DNA of 55,064 nt, filler included, from Basidiobolus ranarum (Eukaryota): assembly GCA_040143965.1 (NCBI GenBank). It is 5 parts of 5 records of this genome, joined end to end, with 100 filler letters (N's around TTAATTAATTAA, not from the genome) between each part and the next. Parts side by side here need not be neighbours in the genome. Positions count along the whole stretch, not along the records: positions 44,153 to 55,064 come from JASJQH010000655.1; 4 more parts are not named here. The stretch is one strand, 5' to 3'. The notes below the pieces were generated by a model. That model did no database searches, had not been told where the DNA came from, and worked only from the letters and a program-made list of their open reading frames with translations. Of this stretch, positions 2,066 to 55,064 are shown piece by piece. Made by a program: the position numbers and the translations under genes. The first letter of the stretch is position 1; the number at the start of each line of letters is the position of its first letter.

Positions 2066-3390
2066 ATGTCACTGATACTAGTACTAAATGCAGGAAGTTC
2101 AAGTCTAAAATTTCAATTGCTCAAAAAAGAAGATACGCTAAAGGTAGTGGCCAAAGGAAGTATTCAAGAGATTGGGAGTTCTTCTAAATCCACCATCACA
2201 TGTACGGTCAATACAAACGAATACAATCAAAATGTGAACGTTTCCGATCACAAAGATGCCATCAACCTATTAATAGACCATCTAGTGGATTCTGAGCCCA
2301 AAGTTGTCAATTGCAAAGAGGATATAGAGCTTATAGGACATCGTGTAGTCCATGGAGGAGATCAAACGACACCTTTAATCATCGATCCACAATCCCTCAA
2401 GAAAATTGACGAATTGACGGAACTAGCTCCCCTCCATAATCACAGTAGTGTTCAAGTGATTCGCCACTGTCTCAAAATCATGCCTCATGGAAAGAACATT
2501 GCTTGCTTTGATACTATGTTTCACAAATCACTTCCACCCCATGTATATACCTACCCGATTCCATACGAGAATACAGTGAAGCAAAGCATCCGAAAATATG
2601 GTTTCCACGGTTTGTCATATGGTCATATTATAAAAGTCGCTTCGAACCATCTTGAAGGAAAACCAGAGGATTTCAAGTTTATTGCCTTACATCTTGGTAG
2701 TGGTGCCTCTGCCTGTGCCATAAAATATGGTGCCAGTATAGATACATCTATGGGAATGACTCCTCTAGAAGGTGAGACTATGATTCCCATCAGTACGATT
2801 TGTCTGATAGACTAATGTTTCTTTATTGCATAGGCCTAATGATGGGAACCAGATCTGGTGATATCGACCCATCGCTGATATTCCATCTTCCTCATAGAGA
2901 AGAGATGGCTAATGAGGCACCAGGCATTGAAGGAGAGAAATTTCATTTAACCAAAGCAGAGTATATTCTAAACCATCAGAGTGGACTTAAAGGCGTAGCG
3001 GGCACTAACGATATTCGGGAGATAATCAAGCTAAGCTCCAGCTCTGACAAAGAGAAATCCAAACGTGCTAAATTAGCACTGGATATGTTTATCTACCGAA
3101 TACAGAAATATATTGGCGCTTATTACGTTGCACTGAACGGTGCAGACGCCATCATTCTTAGTGGTGGTATAGGTGAAAAATCCAAAGAAGTCAGAGACGG
3201 AATATGCCAAGGTTTAGAGTCTATAGGAATCAAATTAAACATGACTAAAAATGATGCAGTGGAAGAGCAATTTAAAAATGGTAAAACTGTAGTTGAAATT
3301 GGTGAGGGAAAAGTTCGTACCCTTGTCATTCAGACTGATGAAGAGATGGAAATAGCTCGTGCGGTGCTTGAAATAGAGAAACAATCGTAA
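2066..3390 (+). CDS. ackA: Acetate kinase, 2 exons (intron 2772-2833)
   Basis: Motifs VLNAGSSSLKF, GHRVVHGG, LAPLHN, FDTMFH, IRKYGFHGLS, HLGSGAS, TSMGMTPLEG|LMMGTRSGD, SGGIGE, TDEE. A GTGAG...ACTAAT...TAG intron joins the two track ORFs in frame. Confidence 0.97.
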
Positions 3391-10416: not shown

Positions 10417-10955
10417 TGTTGAAATTAGCATTGCCTAAACACCTATATAGTCATATATAGTTTAGCACTTAGTTATCTTATATTTCACTAAGATATCACC
10501 CATTATTCTCATGAGGAATTTACTTGGAATATTTTTTACCAACTTAGAAGTTCTCAGTTATATAGGTTTCTCAAACTTATACTAGAAGCCCCAAACTTTG
10601 CACACATTTTGATGGGACATTCCTTCACACATTCTGCATGTTAGTTTGCATATATCTTAACAAAACTATACATAGTAACTCAACAAGTGAAAAACACCAA
10701 TTTCTCTATTTCTCCAAATCACTTCCAACAGGCTCACAAATACTTTAACAGGTTATGAGCCCAAATTTTGCAATATCTGCAATGTCTACTTCTCAGATTT
10801 ATGGAATTTTTCCCTTTTCTGAAAAATTGGATGGAACCAATTATCAACTTTAGAAAATTAAAATTGAAATGCTGCTGCAAGACAAAGGACTTTGAGACAC
10901 TGTTGTAGGAGAAGAAAACAATGCATAACTATCTAAAACCAAAATTTTACTCCAG
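10417..10955 (+). mobile_element. Degenerate Ty1/Copia LTR retrotransposon 5' end (LTR, PBS, gag start); truncated by contig end
   Basis: ...TTTAACA (LTR 3' end, 10750) is immediately followed by the copia-type PBS GGTTATGAGCCC (10751-10762). ATG at 10782 gives MSTSQIYGIFPFSEKLDGTNYQL*KIKIEMLLQDKGL*DTVVG, matching the Copia gag N-terminal pattern KLDGxNYxxWxxxxxxxLxxxxLW. The LTR 5' boundary is uncertain (TGTT at 10417 or 10357). Confidence 0.88.
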
Positions 10956-11055
10956 NNNNNNNNNNNNNNNNNNNNNNNNNNNNNNNNNNNNNNNNNNNNT
11001 TAATTAATTAANNNNNNNNNNNNNNNNNNNNNNNNNNNNNNNNNNNNNNNNNNNN
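10956..11055. other. Artificial contig spacer (N44-TTAATTAATTAA-N44)
   Basis: Six-frame stop linker flanked by 44 N on each side. Confidence 0.98.
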
Positions 11056-11430
11056 CCCCCCCCCCCCCCCCCCCCACCCCCCGCCCCCCGGGGGGGCCAC
11101 GGCGAAGAATAGCAAGTAATTGAATGGTATAAGAACATCCGTATTTCAACATATACAGGCTCTATAAGTCAAAATTTCATGGGGTGTAAAGAACAAAGAT
11201 CACGGTGCATATTAAATCTGCGGTTCGATGGTTTGCACCTCGAGGTTTAGGATATTATTCCATAGAGAAGATGCACACAGTATTTACAAATAAAACAGAA
11301 TATCGATAAAGGAAAAATGAAGGAAAAGCAATAGGCGGCTGCTCAACAACAAGTGTTGATCAATTAGCAATGCACAAAACAGTGGCGTTAAGGAAATTTG
11401 CCCTTGTTCGTTGGGATATGACGGTTCCGC

Positions 11431-22000: not shown

Positions 22001-22100
22001 NNNNNNNNNNNNNNNNNNNNNNNNNNNNNNNNNNNNNNNNNNNNTTAATTAATTAANNNNNNNNNNNNNNNNNNNNNNNNNNNNNNNNNNNNNNNNNNNN
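22001..22100. other. Artificial contig spacer
   Basis: N44-TTAATTAATTAA-N44. Confidence 0.98.
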
Positions 22101-33032: not shown

Positions 33033-33132
33033 NNNNNNNNNNNNNNNNNNNNNNNNNNNNNNNNNNNNNNNNNNNNTTAATTAATTAANNNNNNNNNNNN
33101 NNNNNNNNNNNNNNNNNNNNNNNNNNNNNNNN
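33033..33132. other. Artificial contig spacer
   Basis: N44-TTAATTAATTAA-N44. Confidence 0.98.
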
Positions 33133-44052: not shown

Positions 44053-44152
44053 NNNNNNNNNNNNNNNNNNNNNNNNNNNNNNNNNNNNNNNNNNNNTTAA
44101 TTAATTAANNNNNNNNNNNNNNNNNNNNNNNNNNNNNNNNNNNNNNNNNNNN
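44053..44152. other. Artificial contig spacer
   Basis: N44-TTAATTAATTAA-N44. Confidence 0.98.
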
Positions 44153-44665: not shown

Positions 44666-46250
44666 ATGTCAAAAGAAGCTGTGTTAGTCCTTTTAGATAC
44701 GTGATCTAATAATAACGAATGTCTTTGCTAACCTAACGATTACTTTTAGTGCCGATATTGCTGTTATTGGTCTTGCCGTGATGGGCCAAAATCTCATCCT
44801 CAACATGGACGACAATGGCTTTGTTGTGTGTGCCTTCAACCGAACCGTCTCCAAGGTTGACGATTTCTTGGCGAATGAAGCTAAGGGTACGCACCTTTGT
44901 ATGGAAATTTTATCATATGATCTTGTAACTTACCTATTTTCTTAACTAGGAACCAAGATCATTGGCGCCCATAGTATCGAAGAAATGTGCAAAAGCCTGA
45001 AGAGACCTAGAAGAGTCATGCTAATGGTCAAAGCTGGTTCTGCCGTTGATTCTTTTATTGATATGATCATTCCTCACTTGGAAAAGGGTGACATTATTAT
45101 CGATGGTGGTAACTCCCACTTCCCCGACACTATCCGTCGATGCAAGGATCTTGAATCCAAAGGATTTCTTTATGTCGGTTGTGGTGTTTCCGGTGGTGAG
45201 GAAGGCGCAAGATATGGTCCTAGTCTCATGCCTGGTGGTACCCACGCTGCCTGGGAGCATGTAAGACCCATTTTCCAAGCTATTGCTGCTAAGGTAGATG
45301 GGGAGCCTTGCTGTGAATGGGTTGGTGGTACCGGAGCTGGACACTATGTCAAGATGGTGCACAATGGAATCGAATATGGTGACATGCAATTGATCAGTGA
45401 GACTTACAATTTGATGAAAGATGGACTTGGTCTTAATCACGACGAAATTGGAGACGTCTTTGACGAATGGAACAAGGGTGAATTGGATTCCTACTTAATC
45501 GAGATTACTCGTGATATCGTTCGCTACAAGGACACCGATGGTAAACCTCTCGTACCAAAAATCCGTGATAGTGCTGGTCAAAAAGGAACGGGTAAATGGA
45601 CAGCTATTTCAGCCCTCGATATGGGAGTTCCTATTACTTTAATCGGGGAGGCCGTATTCTCGCGTTGTCTCTCGGCGTTGAAAGATGAGCGTGTTAGAGC
45701 AAGTAAAATCTTGGATGGTCCTACAGCCAAATTCACTGGTGATAAAAAGGAATTTACTAGACAACTCGGCAAGGCCTTGTACGCTTCCAAGATCATTTCA
45801 TATACTCAAGGCTTCATGTTGCTTAGAGACGCTGCCAAAGAAAATGACTGGGAACTCAACTATGGAGGTATCGCTCTTATGTGGCGTGGCGGTTGCATTA
45901 TTCGAAGCGCTTTCCTTGGTGATATTAGAAATGCCTATCAAAAAAATCCTAACCTTGAATCTCTATTATTTGATGATTTCTTCCGTAAAGCACTCTCAAC
46001 ATCTCACCAAGATTGGAGAGTAGTAGTCTCCCAGGCTGTCTTGCTTGGAATTACTGTCCCTGCCATATCTACTGCATTGGCTTTCTACGACGGTTATCGT
46101 ACTGAAACACTTCCCGCCAGTTTGGTGCAAGCACAGCGTGATTATTTCGGTGCTCATACCTACGAATTGCTAGACAAACCAGGAACCTATGTCCATACCA
46201 ATTGGACAGGTAAAGGAGGAAACGTAATTAGTTCCACTTACATTGTGTAA
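44666..46250 (+). CDS. GND1: 6-phosphogluconate dehydrogenase (decarboxylating), 3 exons
   Basis: MSKEAV|ADIAVIGLAVMGQNLILNM...FNRTVSKV...|IIIDGGNSHFPDT, GVSGGEEGARYGPSLMPGG, GHYVKMVHNGIEYGDMQ, QAQRDYFGAHTY. Confidence 0.99.
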
Positions 46251-47281: not shown

Positions 47282-47824
47282 ATGAGTTCAGATTTCGATT
47301 ATTTGACTTTCCTTCGGAAACGCTGCCAACACGACACAGAACTTATGAACGCTCCTAAGAAAGAGAGCGATACTGAAGACAAAAGTTTAGACTTTAAAGA
47401 TGATATCAAGCATTGTAATAATCCTGAGCTTGTAGACGAGATTCGTGCTAAACTCTTAAACTCTATAGAAGGCATGTTCTATATAAGTGAAGCCGACTAT
47501 CCTTTTACCTTCTTTTTCATCCCCTCCAGTAAAATATCTGAAAAGGGTCTCTCTACTTCCAAAGTACTCTCTGTAGAAGAATTTCGTCAAGTGATAAATC
47601 TTGATACTCCTCTTGCTGATTCTCAAATATCTTTGGAAGAATTTTTCCAACCTTTTGAAGACTCTTCAGAGTATCAGAGTCTCGAGAAAACTTTCAGGCA
47701 ATTCTTTGAACCAGACCATTTGAGCATTTACAGACTTGGCGAAATAGAGATTAGTGTTTGGATTACAGGACTGATAGAAGATGTCGGTCTCATTGGGGTT
47801 TCTACTCTAAGCATTGAATCTTAA
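47282..47824 (+). CDS. Nuclease A inhibitor (NuiA)-like protein, intronless
   Basis: EGMFYISEADYPF, SLEEFFQP, YQSLEKTF, IYRLGEIEISVWITG and terminal GVSTLSIES follow the NuiA family pattern (GLxYxSExDYPF...VYRxGxxEIxxYIxG...GLxTxxVET); acidic protein. Confidence 0.85.
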   Translation: MSSDFDYLTFLRKRCQHDTELMNAPKKESDTEDKSLDFKDDIKHCNNPELVDEIRAKLLNSIEGMFYISEADYPFTFFFIPSSKISEKGLSTSKVLSVEEFRQVINLDTPLADSQISLEEFFQPFEDSSEYQSLEKTFRQFFEPDHLSIYRLGEIEISVWITGLIEDVGLIGVSTLSIES

Positions 47825-49645: not shown

Positions 49646-51692
<2,047 letters not shown>

Positions 51693-52899
51693 AAAAACCA
51701 AGACTTGTAGAGCCTCCGGAGGGCAAGAGACATTCTCTTTGGAATATGTCTTATCCCAGGCGCATTATTGTATACTAGCTTCGTTCCTATATTCAATACC
51801 TTATACTTTTCCTTCTTGTTCATATTCGGACAAGTCCTTTTTGAAGACGACGACGATAAAATGATGTCACGCGGCCGCTATATCGAGAGAAATATTTAAT
51901 ATACTTAATGTGGGTGCAAACTCGAATACTCGATTTGTATGATACCATGTTATTATATGTGCATATAATCAATTCATAGTATTTTTGGATTTTTGCATAA
52001 TCTAGCTGTTACAATATAGAAGCCGCATTATCACATTATTTTGATTTCTCTTTGTGTCATTTTTTACTCCTTATATCCCATGTATTTTTATTTTCGTCAT
52101 CTTCTGTTCCTTTAATCTTTCCTTTTCCATGGCACTTCAACGAAGATAGAATCTAACAATTAGCCGTATTTTATTTTATTCTGTAATTTGCTTCTCCATC
52201 TACTAAACTCTAACATTACAAACACCTGCTTATATTTTTGTTACTTCTTGTCTGCTTATATCTCACTTTGGAGTATATATTCCTGATACTAGTCAAACAT
52301 TACACCAAACAGTTTCAATTTCATATTCTATCTTTATTTCTACTCCTGTTCTACATGTATAGCTTAAATCTACAAACTACTCAAACCTCTGCTTCAAAAA
52401 GACATCAATCCTTACGACGCACTTACCTGCACCACAGCATAGTGTTTCTTCTGTTGATAATGCTTTTAGTGGTGGTGCTGGAGTGATAAACAAGTCTGTA
52501 ACCAGTAATAACGTTAGACATTTGACCTGCCAAACAATCGGATAGTTACTTGGGACGATGATCAATAGTTCGTTGAATTTGTATAGTTTTGTAGTTAGAG
52601 TAAGCGTAAGTTTCTCTATATGTATTATAACCTCCGCAACAGTAACACTCACTTGGCATGTCTCTTCAATACCTTATAGTTCTTATCAACGGACAGTACA
52701 GGTTCATTACCACTTTAATATATTCGAAATTTTACTATCATTTGACATGCATTGATTGAAACAAAAGCGCAAAAGTGCATCAACAAAAACGCATCATACG
52801 GAATTGTTTATGAACATTTTCCACACGTCTCAGGCCAAAATCCCGCTTGCAATTGAGTTACAAAGTATGAAACTCTGGCAAATCCTGATGCTATAGCAG

Positions 52900-52907
52900 T
52901 ATATAAG
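52900..52907 (+). promoter_or_regulatory. Candidate TATA box of the MnxG-like gene
   Basis: TATATAAG ~50 nt upstream of CCAAAATG (ATG 52958). Confidence 0.55.
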
Positions 52908-52957
52908 ATGAGGCGAACTAACAATACTAATTAAGATACATACTGACATCATCCAAA

Positions 52958-55064
52958 ATGTTCAATAGTCGGCCATCGAAGCGGGGACTTCACCGAGGCC
53001 AAGTGTCCCATTCACTGATCTACTGGATGCTGGTGTTACTAGCGATAAGTTCATTACTTCAAGACGTCTCAGCCTACCAAAGTTACAGCTCTAATCCTAG
53101 TAGTTATAATTCGAAATGGAATCATCATAGTGATGTCGGTTCTCATTACAAAGAAAAGTCAGATATGCGCCAAAGACTTGTTCCTCAAACTCGTCTTTAT
53201 GAGGTTTCTGCAATTCCAATGCCAGTAGTGATGAACACATGGGGTGATTATGATGCCAACGGTACAATGTTTGCTTTGAAGGAGAATCTTGATTACCTTA
53301 GCGGCTACCGTGATTATATCTTAGGACAGCTGAGTTTAAATTCTAGTGATATACCTATGGATCCCTTAGTTAAGCCACTAGTGTTACGTTGTAATCAAGG
53401 TGATAAAATCCATGTCAAGTTCACAAACCAAATTCCAGGAGCTCAGGTAGGAATGCACCCATATCTTTATGGATATGATATCAAAAGTGACGGGACAGCC
53501 GTAGGAGGTAACCCTACCAGCTTAATAGGTCCAGGACAGGTGACTGAATATACTTGGCCTTGCTTGAGGGAAGGAACTTACTTAATCTCTGATGGTGGCT
53601 CTTATGATGGCTCTCCAGCTGGTACTGTAATCCATGGGTTATTCGGAGCCATTATTGTCGAGCCAAGAGGATCTCTCTGGACTGATCCGACTACAGGAAA
53701 ACCAACAGTCGATGGTATACATGCAGATATTCATCCCTACCCCCTTAATGGAGGATGTCCCAAGAAATACGATTTTTATGACGAGGAAGATCAGCATACT
53801 CACCCTGATTGTCCATTCAGAGAATTCACTCTATTCTTCCAAGATCGAGTTCAAGTACGGAATAACGCCCCACCTTCATTCGACCCTTGTACGGGAGCAA
53901 ATAATACAGGAGTACCTATCTTCTTGAATATCTTCAACTATCGCTCGGAGTCAATGACCAATCGTCGACAGGCATTATGGAAGATGATCAAAGATGGGAA
54001 AATATCGAATGTTAACGGTGAAGAGCAGCATCACTCTAGCTGGCTATTTGGTGATCCAGCAACCCCAGTCTTCCGTGCCTATGCTGGTGATCCAGTAAGA
54101 TACAGAGTCATTGACACCGGTGTAACTGAAACCCACGTATTCCATTTACATGGTCATCAATGGAGTTCGGGAAGAGGTGATCGTAGAAGTGACATTATCG
54201 ATTCCTTTTCATTGTCTCCTCTGACTACTTGGGATTTGGATATCCATTTCGGTGCTGGCTCTAGATTGAAGACGATCGGAGATGTCATTCTCCATTGCCA
54301 TTTGTATGTCCATTTCGAAACAGGAATGTGGAGTATGATGCGTGTCTTAGATCGCTATGAAGATGGCTACTCTACCTATCCCGATGGCACTCCTACCCCT
54401 AAGTTGATCCCATTGCCTGGTCGACCACATCCACCATACAAGACTGAACTTCAGCCAGGTTATCCCAACTTCATTCCCGGCACCCCTGGCCAGAAATCCC
54501 CTAGAGTTCCTTGGCCAGTAGAATTGTTGGGTGAGATTCCGGAAGGATCAGATTATCGTCCAGCAACTGAGGTTGAAGTAGCAAGTATGAATTCAGATCC
54601 TCAAGTCGGAAACCTCTTCACTTTGATTCCTACTCCTCGCAACTTAGAAACGCACTTTTTCAACGTCAGTATCATGTCACGTGCTATTGAGTATAACAAA
54701 TATGGATGGAATTATCCATATGGCCATATGTATGCTGCAGCAGAAACAGTGAAGCCAGACCCTGGACGTCCTGCCAAGTATGAGCCTTTTACGATGCGTG
54801 TTACTCAGAAGAGTGTCTCCGTGAGCCAATACACCAACAACCTTCCTCGCACGATTCCTGCTACTCCATTTGATGCAGCATTCCCCGAGTGTGCAGCAGT
54901 TGCTCATGAAGGTGAGGCAGGTATGCATGTACATCTCGTCAAGTTCGATGTACTATCCAGCGATGGTGCCTCCGTTGGTTGGAATTATATCAGTGGTGCA
55001 AGATTTGGAAAGTATCTGATTAATCGTTGGTGGATTGATGATGCTCTGGGCCATGTCTTCTTCC
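52958..55064 (+). CDS. mnxG: MnxG-type large multicopper oxidase (manganese-oxidase-like) with N-terminal signal-peptide-like segment; intronless, 3'-truncated
   Basis: 702 uninterrupted codons to the window end. Motifs: VVMNTWGDYDANG, PLVLRCNQGD, SDGTAVG, HGLFGAIIVEPRGSLWTDPTTG, FREF, NYRSESM, EEQHHSSWLFGDPATPVFRAYAGDP, ETHVFHLHGHQW (54134-), IGDVILHCHLYVHFETGMW (54293-54328), PGYPNFIPG, MHVHLVKFDVLSSDGASVGWNY (54923-). Confidence 0.9.
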   Translation, partial: MFNSRPSKRGLHRGQVSHSLIYWMLVLLAISSLLQDVSAYQSYSSNPSSYNSKWNHHSDVGSHYKEKSDMRQRLVPQTRLYEVSAIPMPVVMNTWGDYDANGTMFALKENLDYLSGYRDYILGQLSLNSSDIPMDPLVKPLVLRCNQGDKIHVKFTNQIPGAQVGMHPYLYGYDIKSDGTAVGGNPTSLIGPGQVTEYTWPCLREGTYLISDGGSYDGSPAGTVIHGLFGAIIVEPRGSLWTDPTTGKPTVDGIHADIHPYPLNGGCPKKYDFYDEEDQHTHPDCPFREFTLFFQDRVQVRNNAPPSFDPCTGANNTGVPIFLNIFNYRSESMTNRRQALWKMIKDGKISNVNGEEQHHSSWLFGDPATPVFRAYAGDPVRYRVIDTGVTETHVFHLHGHQWSSGRGDRRSDIIDSFSLSPLTTWDLDIHFGAGSRLKTIGDVILHCHLYVHFETGMWSMMRVLDRYEDGYSTYPDGTPTPKLIPLPGRPHPPYKTELQPGYPNFIPGTPGQKSPRVPWPVELLGEIPEGSDYRPATEVEVASMNSDPQVGNLFTLIPTPRNLETHFFNVSIMSRAIEYNKYGWNYPYGHMYAAAETVKPDPGRPAKYEPFTMRVTQKSVSVSQYTNNLPRTIPATPFDAAFPECAAVAHEGEAGMHVHLVKFDVLSSDGASVGWNYISGARFGKYLINRWWIDDALGHVFF

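Follow-up and report, generated by a model that had tools for sequence, protein, structure and literature searches.

MnxG-type oxidases are the best-understood bacterial enzymes that make manganese oxide. The Mnx complex of Bacillus sp. PL-12 (MnxE3F3G), whose structure has been solved (Protein Data Bank (PDB) entry 9bxa), is an exosporium Mn(II)/Mn(III) oxidase. According to the accessible sections of PMC13689576, Bacillus Mnx oxidizes Mn(II) via Mn(III) to MnO2; Pseudomonas MnxG oxidizes Mn as well, and does so without MnxE and MnxF. A 2013 survey of six-domain copper proteins placed MnxG relatives in bacteria and two haloarchaea only (PMC3600357, accessible sections). Fungal Mn oxidation has been described in Dikarya, where it involves Mn peroxidase, superoxide and several secreted oxidases (PMC10252929); the accessible sections of that review mention no MnxG-type enzyme and no early-diverging fungus. 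Here we analyze a 55,064-nucleotide stretch of DNA from Basidiobolus ranarum (GenBank assembly GCA_040143965.1), referred to throughout as the window, which ends inside an oxidase gene of this kind. The element is best read as the 5′ half of a gene that resides in Basidiobolus and encodes a secreted, six-cupredoxin MnxG-family oxidase of ∼1,340 residues, which derives from an old transfer and for which Mn is the likeliest substrate. Taken as a whole this reading is slightly better than an even bet, while the family identity of the protein and the fungal residence of the gene are close to certain. An earlier note, made from the sequence of the window alone, had stated that no fungal MnxG was known to its author, and our literature search agrees with it: in the accessible texts, no fungal MnxG is described and no paper joins MnxG with Basidiobolus.

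The gene is represented by a 702-codon frame without a stop at 52958-55064 on the + strand, with an ATG at 52958 and a 3′ end that is open where the window ends. It is the longest open reading frame (ORF) among the 16 of at least 150 residues in the window, the runners-up having 595 and 421. Its length is far beyond chance, since at the window's base composition an estimated ∼6% of random codons would be stops. Translation of frame 1 of 52958-55064 confirmed what the earlier note had reported, a stop-free frame of this length running off the window, and no intron lies within the part of the gene that is present. The homologue P0002 (1,341 residues) is colinear with the window protein and identical to it at 583 of 702 positions (83%), with 9 gap positions. 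The closest homologues, of 1,336–1,342 residues, align through to the end, and the window stops inside the third domain.

Sequence and structure searches converge on MnxG. The best PDB sequence match (HMMER) is the MnxG chain of Bacillus sp. PL-12, 9bxa_A, with an E-value of 1.3e-147 over query residues 79–702 and chain residues 3–574; two-domain laccases come next (7e-13 and ∼1e-12). An AlphaFold2 model built from a 35-sequence alignment (pLDDT 84.3, pTM 0.84) finds the same chain as its best Foldseek match (E 1.7e-59, TM 0.74, 35% identity), and the PL-12 protein has the same fold and the same order of cupredoxins 1–3. These searches bear out the assignment proposed earlier, to the MnxG family and not to the laccase/Fet3 group. 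The blocks from which it had been recognized, EE.HH.SW.FGDPATP, GLFGA...WTDP.TG, PG.PNFIPG and H.H.VKFDVL..DG..VGWNY, all align to PL-12 MnxG by HMMER. Two-domain laccases are a more distant point of comparison. The whole monomer of Streptomyces SLAC aligns to domains 1–2 (E ∼1e-12; TMt ∼0.7), consistent with the view that MnxG is three fused two-domain units. The window protein differs from SLAC in that its domain 1 lacks the two HxH pairs, and in being part of a six-domain chain with one trinuclear site as opposed to a homotrimer with three.

The copper-binding motifs occur in the permuted order that had been noted from the sequence, HxxHxH, then HCHxxxHxxxxM and only then HxH, and a motif scan places them at residues 393, 446 and 657 (Table 1). 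This differs from the order in three-domain fungal oxidases of ∼550 residues, in which HxH and HxH come first, followed by HxxHxH and by HCH near the C-terminus. All ten ligands within the window (H393, H396, H398, H446, C447, H448, H452, M457, H657 and H659) are invariant in 35 of 35 homologues, and all 12 ligand columns of a 74-row alignment are kept in every row that has sequence there. The window ends one residue short of the expected start, at residue 703, of a fourth motif, HDH, which is found 46 residues past HVH in 11 of the 12 other fungal homologues (it was not found in P0023) and in 7 of 7 bacterial rows. By analogy with canonical multicopper oxidases, from which all ligand roles are assigned, HCHLYVHFETGM would supply the Cys-bridged His pair to the trinuclear cluster together with the type-1 Cys, His and axial Met. 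In the PDB alignment domain 1 has one His where laccase has HVH and is without the HxH pairs that mark a domain with a trinuclear site; the single trinuclear cluster must therefore lie, like that of MnxG, between domain 2 and domain 3. PL-12 MnxG shows the same permuted order: its type-1 copper likewise sits in domain 2, its trinuclear cluster is shared by domains 2 and 3, and all canonical ligands are conserved. H452 aligns with the position mutated in the 9bxa entry, which is titled “Mnx H340A”; the Ala that stands opposite this type-1 ligand in the 9bxa chain is therefore explained by the mutation.

A further His pair, H358-H359 of EEQHHSSW (nucleotides 54029-54034), is kept in all fungal rows, in 6 of 6 Bacillales rows, PL-12 MnxG among the proteins that have it, and in 44 of 44 other bacterial rows; it is replaced in 6 of 6 Clostridia rows and 5 of 5 outgroup rows. 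Judged from this distribution, the pair could mark an additional metal site by which sub-families differ.

Table 1. Coordinates of the oxidase gene, its predicted parts and its neighbors in the window (aa, residues of the oxidase; copper-ligand roles are assigned by analogy).
Feature	Position	Strand	Basis or remark
Partial oxidase coding sequence, residues 1–702 of an expected ∼1,340	52958..55064	+	Open frame; 9bxa_A E 1.3e-147; colinear with P0002
Predicted leader, aa 1–39: basic n-region, hydrophobic core L20–L34, VSA|YQ	52958..53074	+	Hydropathy; model helix 18–33 with disordered flanks
Low-complexity Ser/Asn/His-rich linker, aa 40–77	53075..53188	+	pLDDT <50 at 35–66; MnxG alignment begins at residue 79
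Cupredoxin domain 1, ∼aa 78–262	53189..53743	+	Cu-oxidase_3 at 143–237; two-domain laccase alignment; beta strands 78–259
Cupredoxin domain 2, ∼aa 286–470, with putative type-1 site and half of the trinuclear ligands	53813..54367	+	Cu-oxidase_2 at 364–463; motifs
HVFHLH (H393, H396, H398), HxxHxH: putative type-1 His and two trinuclear His	54134..54151	+	Motif scan; invariant in 35/35 and 74/74 rows
HCHLYVHFETGM (H446, C447, H448, H452, M457)	54293..54328	+	Motif scan at aa 446; invariant in both alignments
Pro-rich inter-domain linker, ∼aa 471–560, with PGYPNFIPG	54368..54637	+	Aligned to MnxG; mostly coil in model
Cupredoxin domain 3, ∼aa 561–702, cut by the window end	54638..55064	+	Alignment up to MnxG residue 574; strands 564–693
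HVH (H657, H659), first HxH of domain 3: putative trinuclear ligands	54926..54934	+	Motif scan
Main ORF of 6-phosphogluconate dehydrogenase (GND1)	44985-46250		N-terminal exon upstream, across a stretch with an in-frame stop
Main exon of DDX3/Ded1-type DEAD-box helicase gene (DED1)	49905..51692	+	DEAD, Helicase_C; DDX3X E 2.9e-189
AT-rich spacer between DED1 and the oxidase gene, 1,265 bp	51693..52957	.	No N; no MnxE/MnxF-like ORF

Searches for relatives returned 2,425 proteins of 1,230–3,510 residues that match the window protein at E≤0.001. Identities fall in steps, from 83% for P0002 through 73–74% for proteins of B. ranarum and B. meristosporus and 44–48% for chytrids (Borealophlyctis nickersoniae, Rhizophlyctis rosea, Powellomyces hirtus and Fimicolochytrium jonesii) to 35–41% for bacteria. 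A second type of Basidiobolus paralogue is 61% identical with the window protein as query and 54–56% with P0002 as query. Among 1.84 billion cluster representatives, 1,750 matched at E≤0.001 and 441 at E≤1e-30, and a third B. ranarum fragment was found in this set. At least 583 prokaryote loci were recovered in a scan of one genome per species; among the loci listed, none exceeds 37% identity to the fungal query. Several MnxG-like copies are present in each of B. ranarum and B. meristosporus (P0002-P0006, P0122 and P0242).

Every tree places the fungal proteins together. In a FastTree phylogeny of 164 rows, 13 of 13 fungal rows form one clade with support 100, and in a quick IQ-TREE phylogeny of 59 rows (LG+C20 PMSF) a single fungal clade has an SH-aLRT of 99. 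A more careful IQ-TREE analysis of 41 rows and 1,151 columns, which omits 18 of the 59 rows, including the long-branched P0017 and the duplicate gene model P0005, supports the 11 fungal rows at 100/100, Basidiobolus alone at 100/100 and the chytrids alone at 100/100, and joins the fungi to a mixed bacterial sister clade at 99/99. This sister clade contains Actinomycetota, Cyanobacteria, Alphaproteobacteria, Myxococcota, Bacteroidota and Acidobacteriota. Rooting was provided by a 74-row FastTree phylogeny (aligned in a faster MAFFT mode) with Pseudomonas-type MnxG and proteins of Methanoperedens, Polyangium and Gimesia as outgroup. In this tree the fungal clade is nested four nodes deep among bacterial clades, and the Bacillus/Clostridia clade splits off earlier. 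The representatives at 45–51% identity had been considered as possible further eukaryotes (P0226, P0254, P0240, P0302, P0382 and others) and were rejected, as they all fall among bacteria; all 10 extra representatives added to the 74-row tree were placed there, none inside or next to the fungal clade.

The nesting within bacterial MnxG-like proteins that the earlier note had predicted is thus seen both in the rooted tree and, at 99/99, in the 41-row tree. Its proposal of horizontal transfer is supported as well, with the amendment that the event is not confined to “this fungus”, as chytrids share the clade. The closest bacterial relatives are not Bacillus MnxG, from which it had recognized the sequence blocks, but the mixed clade without MnxE and MnxF. 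From these trees it is very probable that fungi acquired the gene from bacteria; the aligned sequences give good support both to this direction and to one origin for the fungal clade. Since two paralogue lineages occur in B. ranarum and B. meristosporus, and since chytrids of the Spizellomycetales and Rhizophlyctidales belong to the same fungal clade, the transfer is old.

How the gene came to be distributed among fungi is less certain. It could have been acquired once, long ago, and lost many times, or acquired and then passed from fungus to fungus, or, less likely, donated twice. A history without a single ancient acquisition, by way of two related, unsampled bacterial donors or of passage between fungi, is a substantial possibility that falls somewhat short of an even chance. 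The spread of the gene is patchy, with Basidiobolus and five chytrid species the sole eukaryotes among the named matches, and vertical descent from an ancestor of Chytridiomycota and Zoopagomycota would require many losses. Basidiobolus is, moreover, known for abundant bacterial gene acquisition: 2–5% of its genes are reported as candidates for horizontal gene transfer (HGT), mostly intronless and of host-like composition (PMC7466969, accessible sections). Separate donors, however, have to be reconciled with the 100/100 support for the fungal clade, with the finding that none of the 10 added representatives falls in or beside it, and with 13 residues that are common to all 8 full-length fungal rows compared and present in at most 5% of other rows, along with a leader at the same position in both fungal groups. 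Such donors would need to be more closely related to one another than either is to any of the bacterial loci found, at least 583. Transfer from fungus to fungus is compatible with all of these points. The oxidase gene fits the HGT pattern reported for Basidiobolus and may already be listed in Table S5 of PMC7466969; the main texts of that paper and of PMC11291939, the parts accessible, do not contain the words “copper”, “oxidase” or “manganese”.

The fungal proteins carry an N-terminal extension that sets them apart from their bacterial relatives. Compared with Bacillus MnxG, the window protein adds ∼78 N-terminal residues that include a putative leader, whereas Bacillus-type ORFs start at domain 1. 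The hydrophobic segment of the leader spans 15 residues (20–34) with a mean Kyte-Doolittle (KD) hydropathy of 2.39, and the VSA|YQ cleavage site was read from the −3/−1 rule. The Ser/Asn/His-rich linker that follows at residues 40–77 is absent from bacterial relatives. Comparable leaders are present in the remaining type-1 proteins of Basidiobolus and in chytrids. A hydrophobic N-terminal segment passes the hydropathy threshold in 7 of 13 fungal proteins; of the others, three have weaker leaders by eye, two differ in their gene models and one, a long-branched chytrid model, is much longer. No such segment was found in 16 bacterial ORFs drawn from the sister clade, other Actinomycetota, Bacillales and Clostridia. 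In the alignment, at least 75% of the rows of each fungal group have residues in the leader columns, versus at most 10% of 47 bacterial rows. On these sequence features the window oxidase is probably secreted. Eukaryotic multicopper oxidases receive their copper in the secretory pathway, in fungi in the Golgi, and an acquired secretory leader fits this mode of copper loading.

All 16 of the bacterial MnxG-like ORFs inspected (L001-L010, L013, L033, L021, L023, L063 and L067) begin directly at domain 1. These leaderless ORFs encode 1,250–1,800 residues and include those of diderm bacteria.

In the Bacillus locus L063, two small ORFs just upstream match the accessory subunits of the complex, the MnxE (6.6e-31) and MnxF (5.1e-29) chains of 9bxa in a PDB sequence search. 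By tblastn and hidden Markov models (HMMs), MnxE/F were found in 18–19 of 80 bacterial loci, all of them of Bacillales type plus L020 and L039, and tblastn and profiles detected them in none of 16 non-Firmicute loci. MnxE, MnxF and the small ORFs that lie upstream in other bacterial loci matched no NCBIfam family. The fungal enzyme derives from the MnxE/F-free majority of the family and presumably works as that majority does. One Bacillales locus departs from the usual gene order: in L021 (Bacillus bruguierae) the MnxE/MnxF-like ORFs lie downstream of the mnxG homologue, at 10716-11341, and not directly upstream as in other Bacillales loci.

The window protein can be compared with three sets of relatives. 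Uncharacterized oxidases of the sister clade, from Leptolyngbya, Oculatella, Belnapia, Roseomonas, Allosphingosinicella, Archangium and Pontibacter as well as Actinomycetota and Acidobacteriota, have a similar length (1,250–1,450 residues), the same ligands and, like the fungal locus, no MnxE/MnxF (none in the 16 non-Firmicute loci). They differ in that they are 35–41% identical to the window protein and in that the ORFs examined lack a hydrophobic leader, and several of them have, close to where domain 1 starts, an N-terminal HDH or HNH pair that has been lost in Basidiobolus. Against Bacillus MnxG, the window protein is eukaryotic, falls in a different sub-clade, has no MnxE or MnxF genes nearby, and contains insertions, for instance at residues 260–285 with two Cys. 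MnxG of Pseudomonas putida GB-1 (NF041487) belongs to the same super-family and has the same 12 ligand columns; it has ∼1,950 residues, is 22–25% identical and served as outgroup.

The conserved ligands and the solved Mnx structure suggest how the fungal gene may have arisen and how its product may work. A single old transfer from bacterium to fungus, with or without later spread among fungi, would have been followed by adoption of the host's codon usage and by gain of a eukaryotic secretory leader, which would route the oxidase through the Golgi, the site of copper loading. Type-1 copper in domain 2 (H393, C447, H452 and M457) would accept single electrons from the substrate. These would cross the H446-C447-H448 bridge to the trinuclear cluster at the domain 2/3 interface, and the cluster (H396, H398, H446, H448, H657, H659 and the HDH pair beyond the window) would reduce O2 to water. 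The oxidase would be secreted or surface-bound and would act without an MnxE3F3 cap, as its closest bacterial relatives must. The type-1 site is intact, and three quarters of the trinuclear ligands lie within the window, with the rest present in all close homologues.

Mn(II)/Mn(III) is the likeliest substrate, oxidation of Mn(II) being a little less than an even proposition, and a Mn-biomineralizing role is proposed solely from family membership and the intact copper ligands. The one argument for Mn in particular is phylogenetic: Mn oxidation may be ancestral because Bacillus Mnx and Pseudomonas MnxG, both Mn oxidases, flank the fungal clade in the rooted tree. Several points weigh against the reading offered at the outset. 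The Mn bracket consists of two enzymes, 35–40% and ∼22–25% identical to the fungal clade, and most of the family, with its 1,750 representative clusters at E≤0.001, is uncharacterized. Bacillus MnxG acts within an MnxE3F3 complex, and tblastn and HMM searches, which covered the 55-kb window and not the whole genome, found neither MnxE nor MnxF. The NCBIfam equivalog model for MnxG, NF041487 (Pseudomonas type, 1,894 positions), gives the window protein 136.7 bits against a cut-off of 3100; that score comes from about half the protein, which belongs to a different sub-family, and by its sequence the window protein is a member of the wider MnxG family and not an equivalog of the Pseudomonas enzyme. 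The 3′ half of the gene, with the HDH ligands and domains 4–6, lies beyond the window end, so that the intactness of this copy is presumed. Finally, the leader may be a signal anchor instead of a cleaved signal, for example in some chytrids.

A protein with the same history could instead be a secreted general oxidase of the phenol/laccase-like, ferroxidase or cuprous oxidase kind, with a role in, for example, spore-wall cross-linking, pigment formation, or iron or copper handling, in which case Mn oxide formation would not be its role. This, the main rival, is a real but lesser possibility. It draws on the size of the family, in which two members only have been characterized, on the position of the fungal clade in a sub-family without MnxE/F, on the likeness of domains 1–2 to two-domain laccases in sequence and Foldseek comparisons, and on the established promiscuity of many multicopper oxidases; it is countered by the absence of any identified ferroxidase- or laccase-specific feature in the window protein and by the fact that both characterized branches, which bracket the fungal clade, oxidize Mn (PMC13689576, accessible sections).

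If Mn is the substrate, the enzyme would resemble the known fungal routes, Mn peroxidase, laccase-like multicopper oxidases and NADPH-oxidase superoxide, in being extracellular, dependent on O2 and productive of Mn(III/IV), while belonging to an enzyme family unrelated to theirs. Basidiobolus and soil chytrids such as Rhizophlyctis, Powellomyces and Fimicolochytrium might then oxidize Mn(II) by a secreted, cap-free MnxG, a fourth and hitherto unrecognized fungal route received as a single ancient gift and held by a few soil and gut lineages; we put this forward as a tentative proposal. A secretion-adapted clade in two early-diverging fungal groups extends the MnxG family to eukaryotes and offers a natural MnxE/F-free form of the enzyme that is suited to the eukaryotic secretory pathway, so that expression in yeast is conceivable. 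Whether fungi outside Dikarya contribute to the enzymatic cycling of Mn in soils and in animal guts becomes testable, and the locus, with an acquisition common to Chytridiomycota and Zoopagomycota, is a clean case in which to date such a transfer between bacteria and fungi. The novelty is tempered by the extensive acquisition of bacterial genes already described in Basidiobolus and by the presence of the fungal homologues in public databases as “hypothetical” or “cupredoxin” proteins.

The gene has fungal surroundings. The DED1 exon upstream (Table 1) matches NCBI ded1 [Basidiobolus ranarum] with 100% identity across 99% of its length, and the other ORFs of the window are typically eukaryotic, among them an HLH factor, a C2H2 zinc-finger protein and an ankyrin-repeat protein. 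The third-position GC content (GC3) of the oxidase ORF is 0.376, against 0.32–0.42 in 8 host ORFs, and its relative synonymous codon usage (RSCU) correlates with that of the pooled host ORFs at r = 0.80, where the host ORFs themselves range from 0.35 to 0.82. A DED1 homologue of B. meristosporus (89%) lies on an 83,466-base contig and a second B. ranarum DED1 (84%) on a 22,323-base contig; the oxidase homologues P0005/P0003 are listed on an 83,466-base contig and P0004 on a 22,323-base contig. As the contigs of the DED1 and oxidase homologues match in size, the DED1-oxidase linkage appears to recur in other assemblies and in a duplicated region. With DED1 1.27 kb upstream, no N in between and host-like codons, the oxidase gene resides in genuine fungal DNA, as had been claimed for it. 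Bacterial contamination or a chimeric join beside fungal genes has in its favor that the oxidase frame is intronless, unlike its neighbors. It is nevertheless very unlikely, given the unbroken linkage to DED1, the host-like composition and the apparent recurrence of the linkage at two other loci; nor would it account for a best bacterial identity of 35–41%, for nearest relatives that are annotated in further assemblies, of Basidiobolus and of chytrids, on contigs as long as 795 kb, or for a eukaryote-type leader that is absent from bacteria.

The weakest alternative, an ordinary fungal multicopper oxidase (of laccase, Fet3 or ascorbate-oxidase type) whose motifs merely seem permuted, can be dismissed, for Pfam's report of generic domains only (Cu-oxidase_3 at residues 143–237 and Cu-oxidase_2 at 364–463) is outweighed by the MnxG match at 1.3e-147, by the lack of any fungal laccase or Fet3 among the best 60 of 70 PDB matches at E≤1, by the verified motif order and by the grouping with MnxG-like proteins in every tree. 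An affinity to ceruloplasmin was rejected as well, as that match reaches E 0.022 over domain 2 only and the ligands lie in domains 2 and 3, the trinuclear cluster of ceruloplasmin-type oxidases being located between domains 1 and 6.

Several further observations concern the neighboring sequences. In the spacer at 51.7–52.9 kb, small ORFs gave no credible family; one Mfa1 match (E 0.0054) is below the cut-off. At least four Ded1 paralogues, 66–100% identical to the one in the window (P0383-P0391 and P0474), are present in each of B. ranarum and B. meristosporus, and at least two DED1-oxidase pairs sharing contigs suggest large duplicated segments. The Ded1-like proteins P0386 and P0407 (55–59% local identity to that of the window) are filed as UNVERIFIED_CONTAM under the sturgeon Acipenser sinensis, which hints at fungal contamination in the assembly of that species.

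Between GND1 and DED1, a 180-residue ORF at 47282-47824 (+) resembles NuiA (Pfam NuiA E 3.1e-12, together with NuiA_2). The NuiA (nuclease A inhibitor-like) family is known mainly from bacteria, and this ORF could be another acquired gene. Elsewhere in the window, an acetate kinase is divided between two overlapping ORFs at 2066-2815 and 2800-3390 (+), with a Pfam Acetate_kinase match of E 8.9e-74 over profile positions 1–236 of 392; the split suggests an intron or a frame change. The contig had been called “gap-free”, which stands for the interval that holds GND1, DED1 and the oxidase gene, where there is no N, and does not extend to the window, which has eight N runs. Each run is exactly 44 N long, and they come in pairs 12 bases apart, at 10956-11055, 22001-22100, 33033-33132 and 44053-44152. 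The pairs recur every ∼11,040 bases, with the last ending at 44152, a regularity that points to masking more than to gaps in the assembly.

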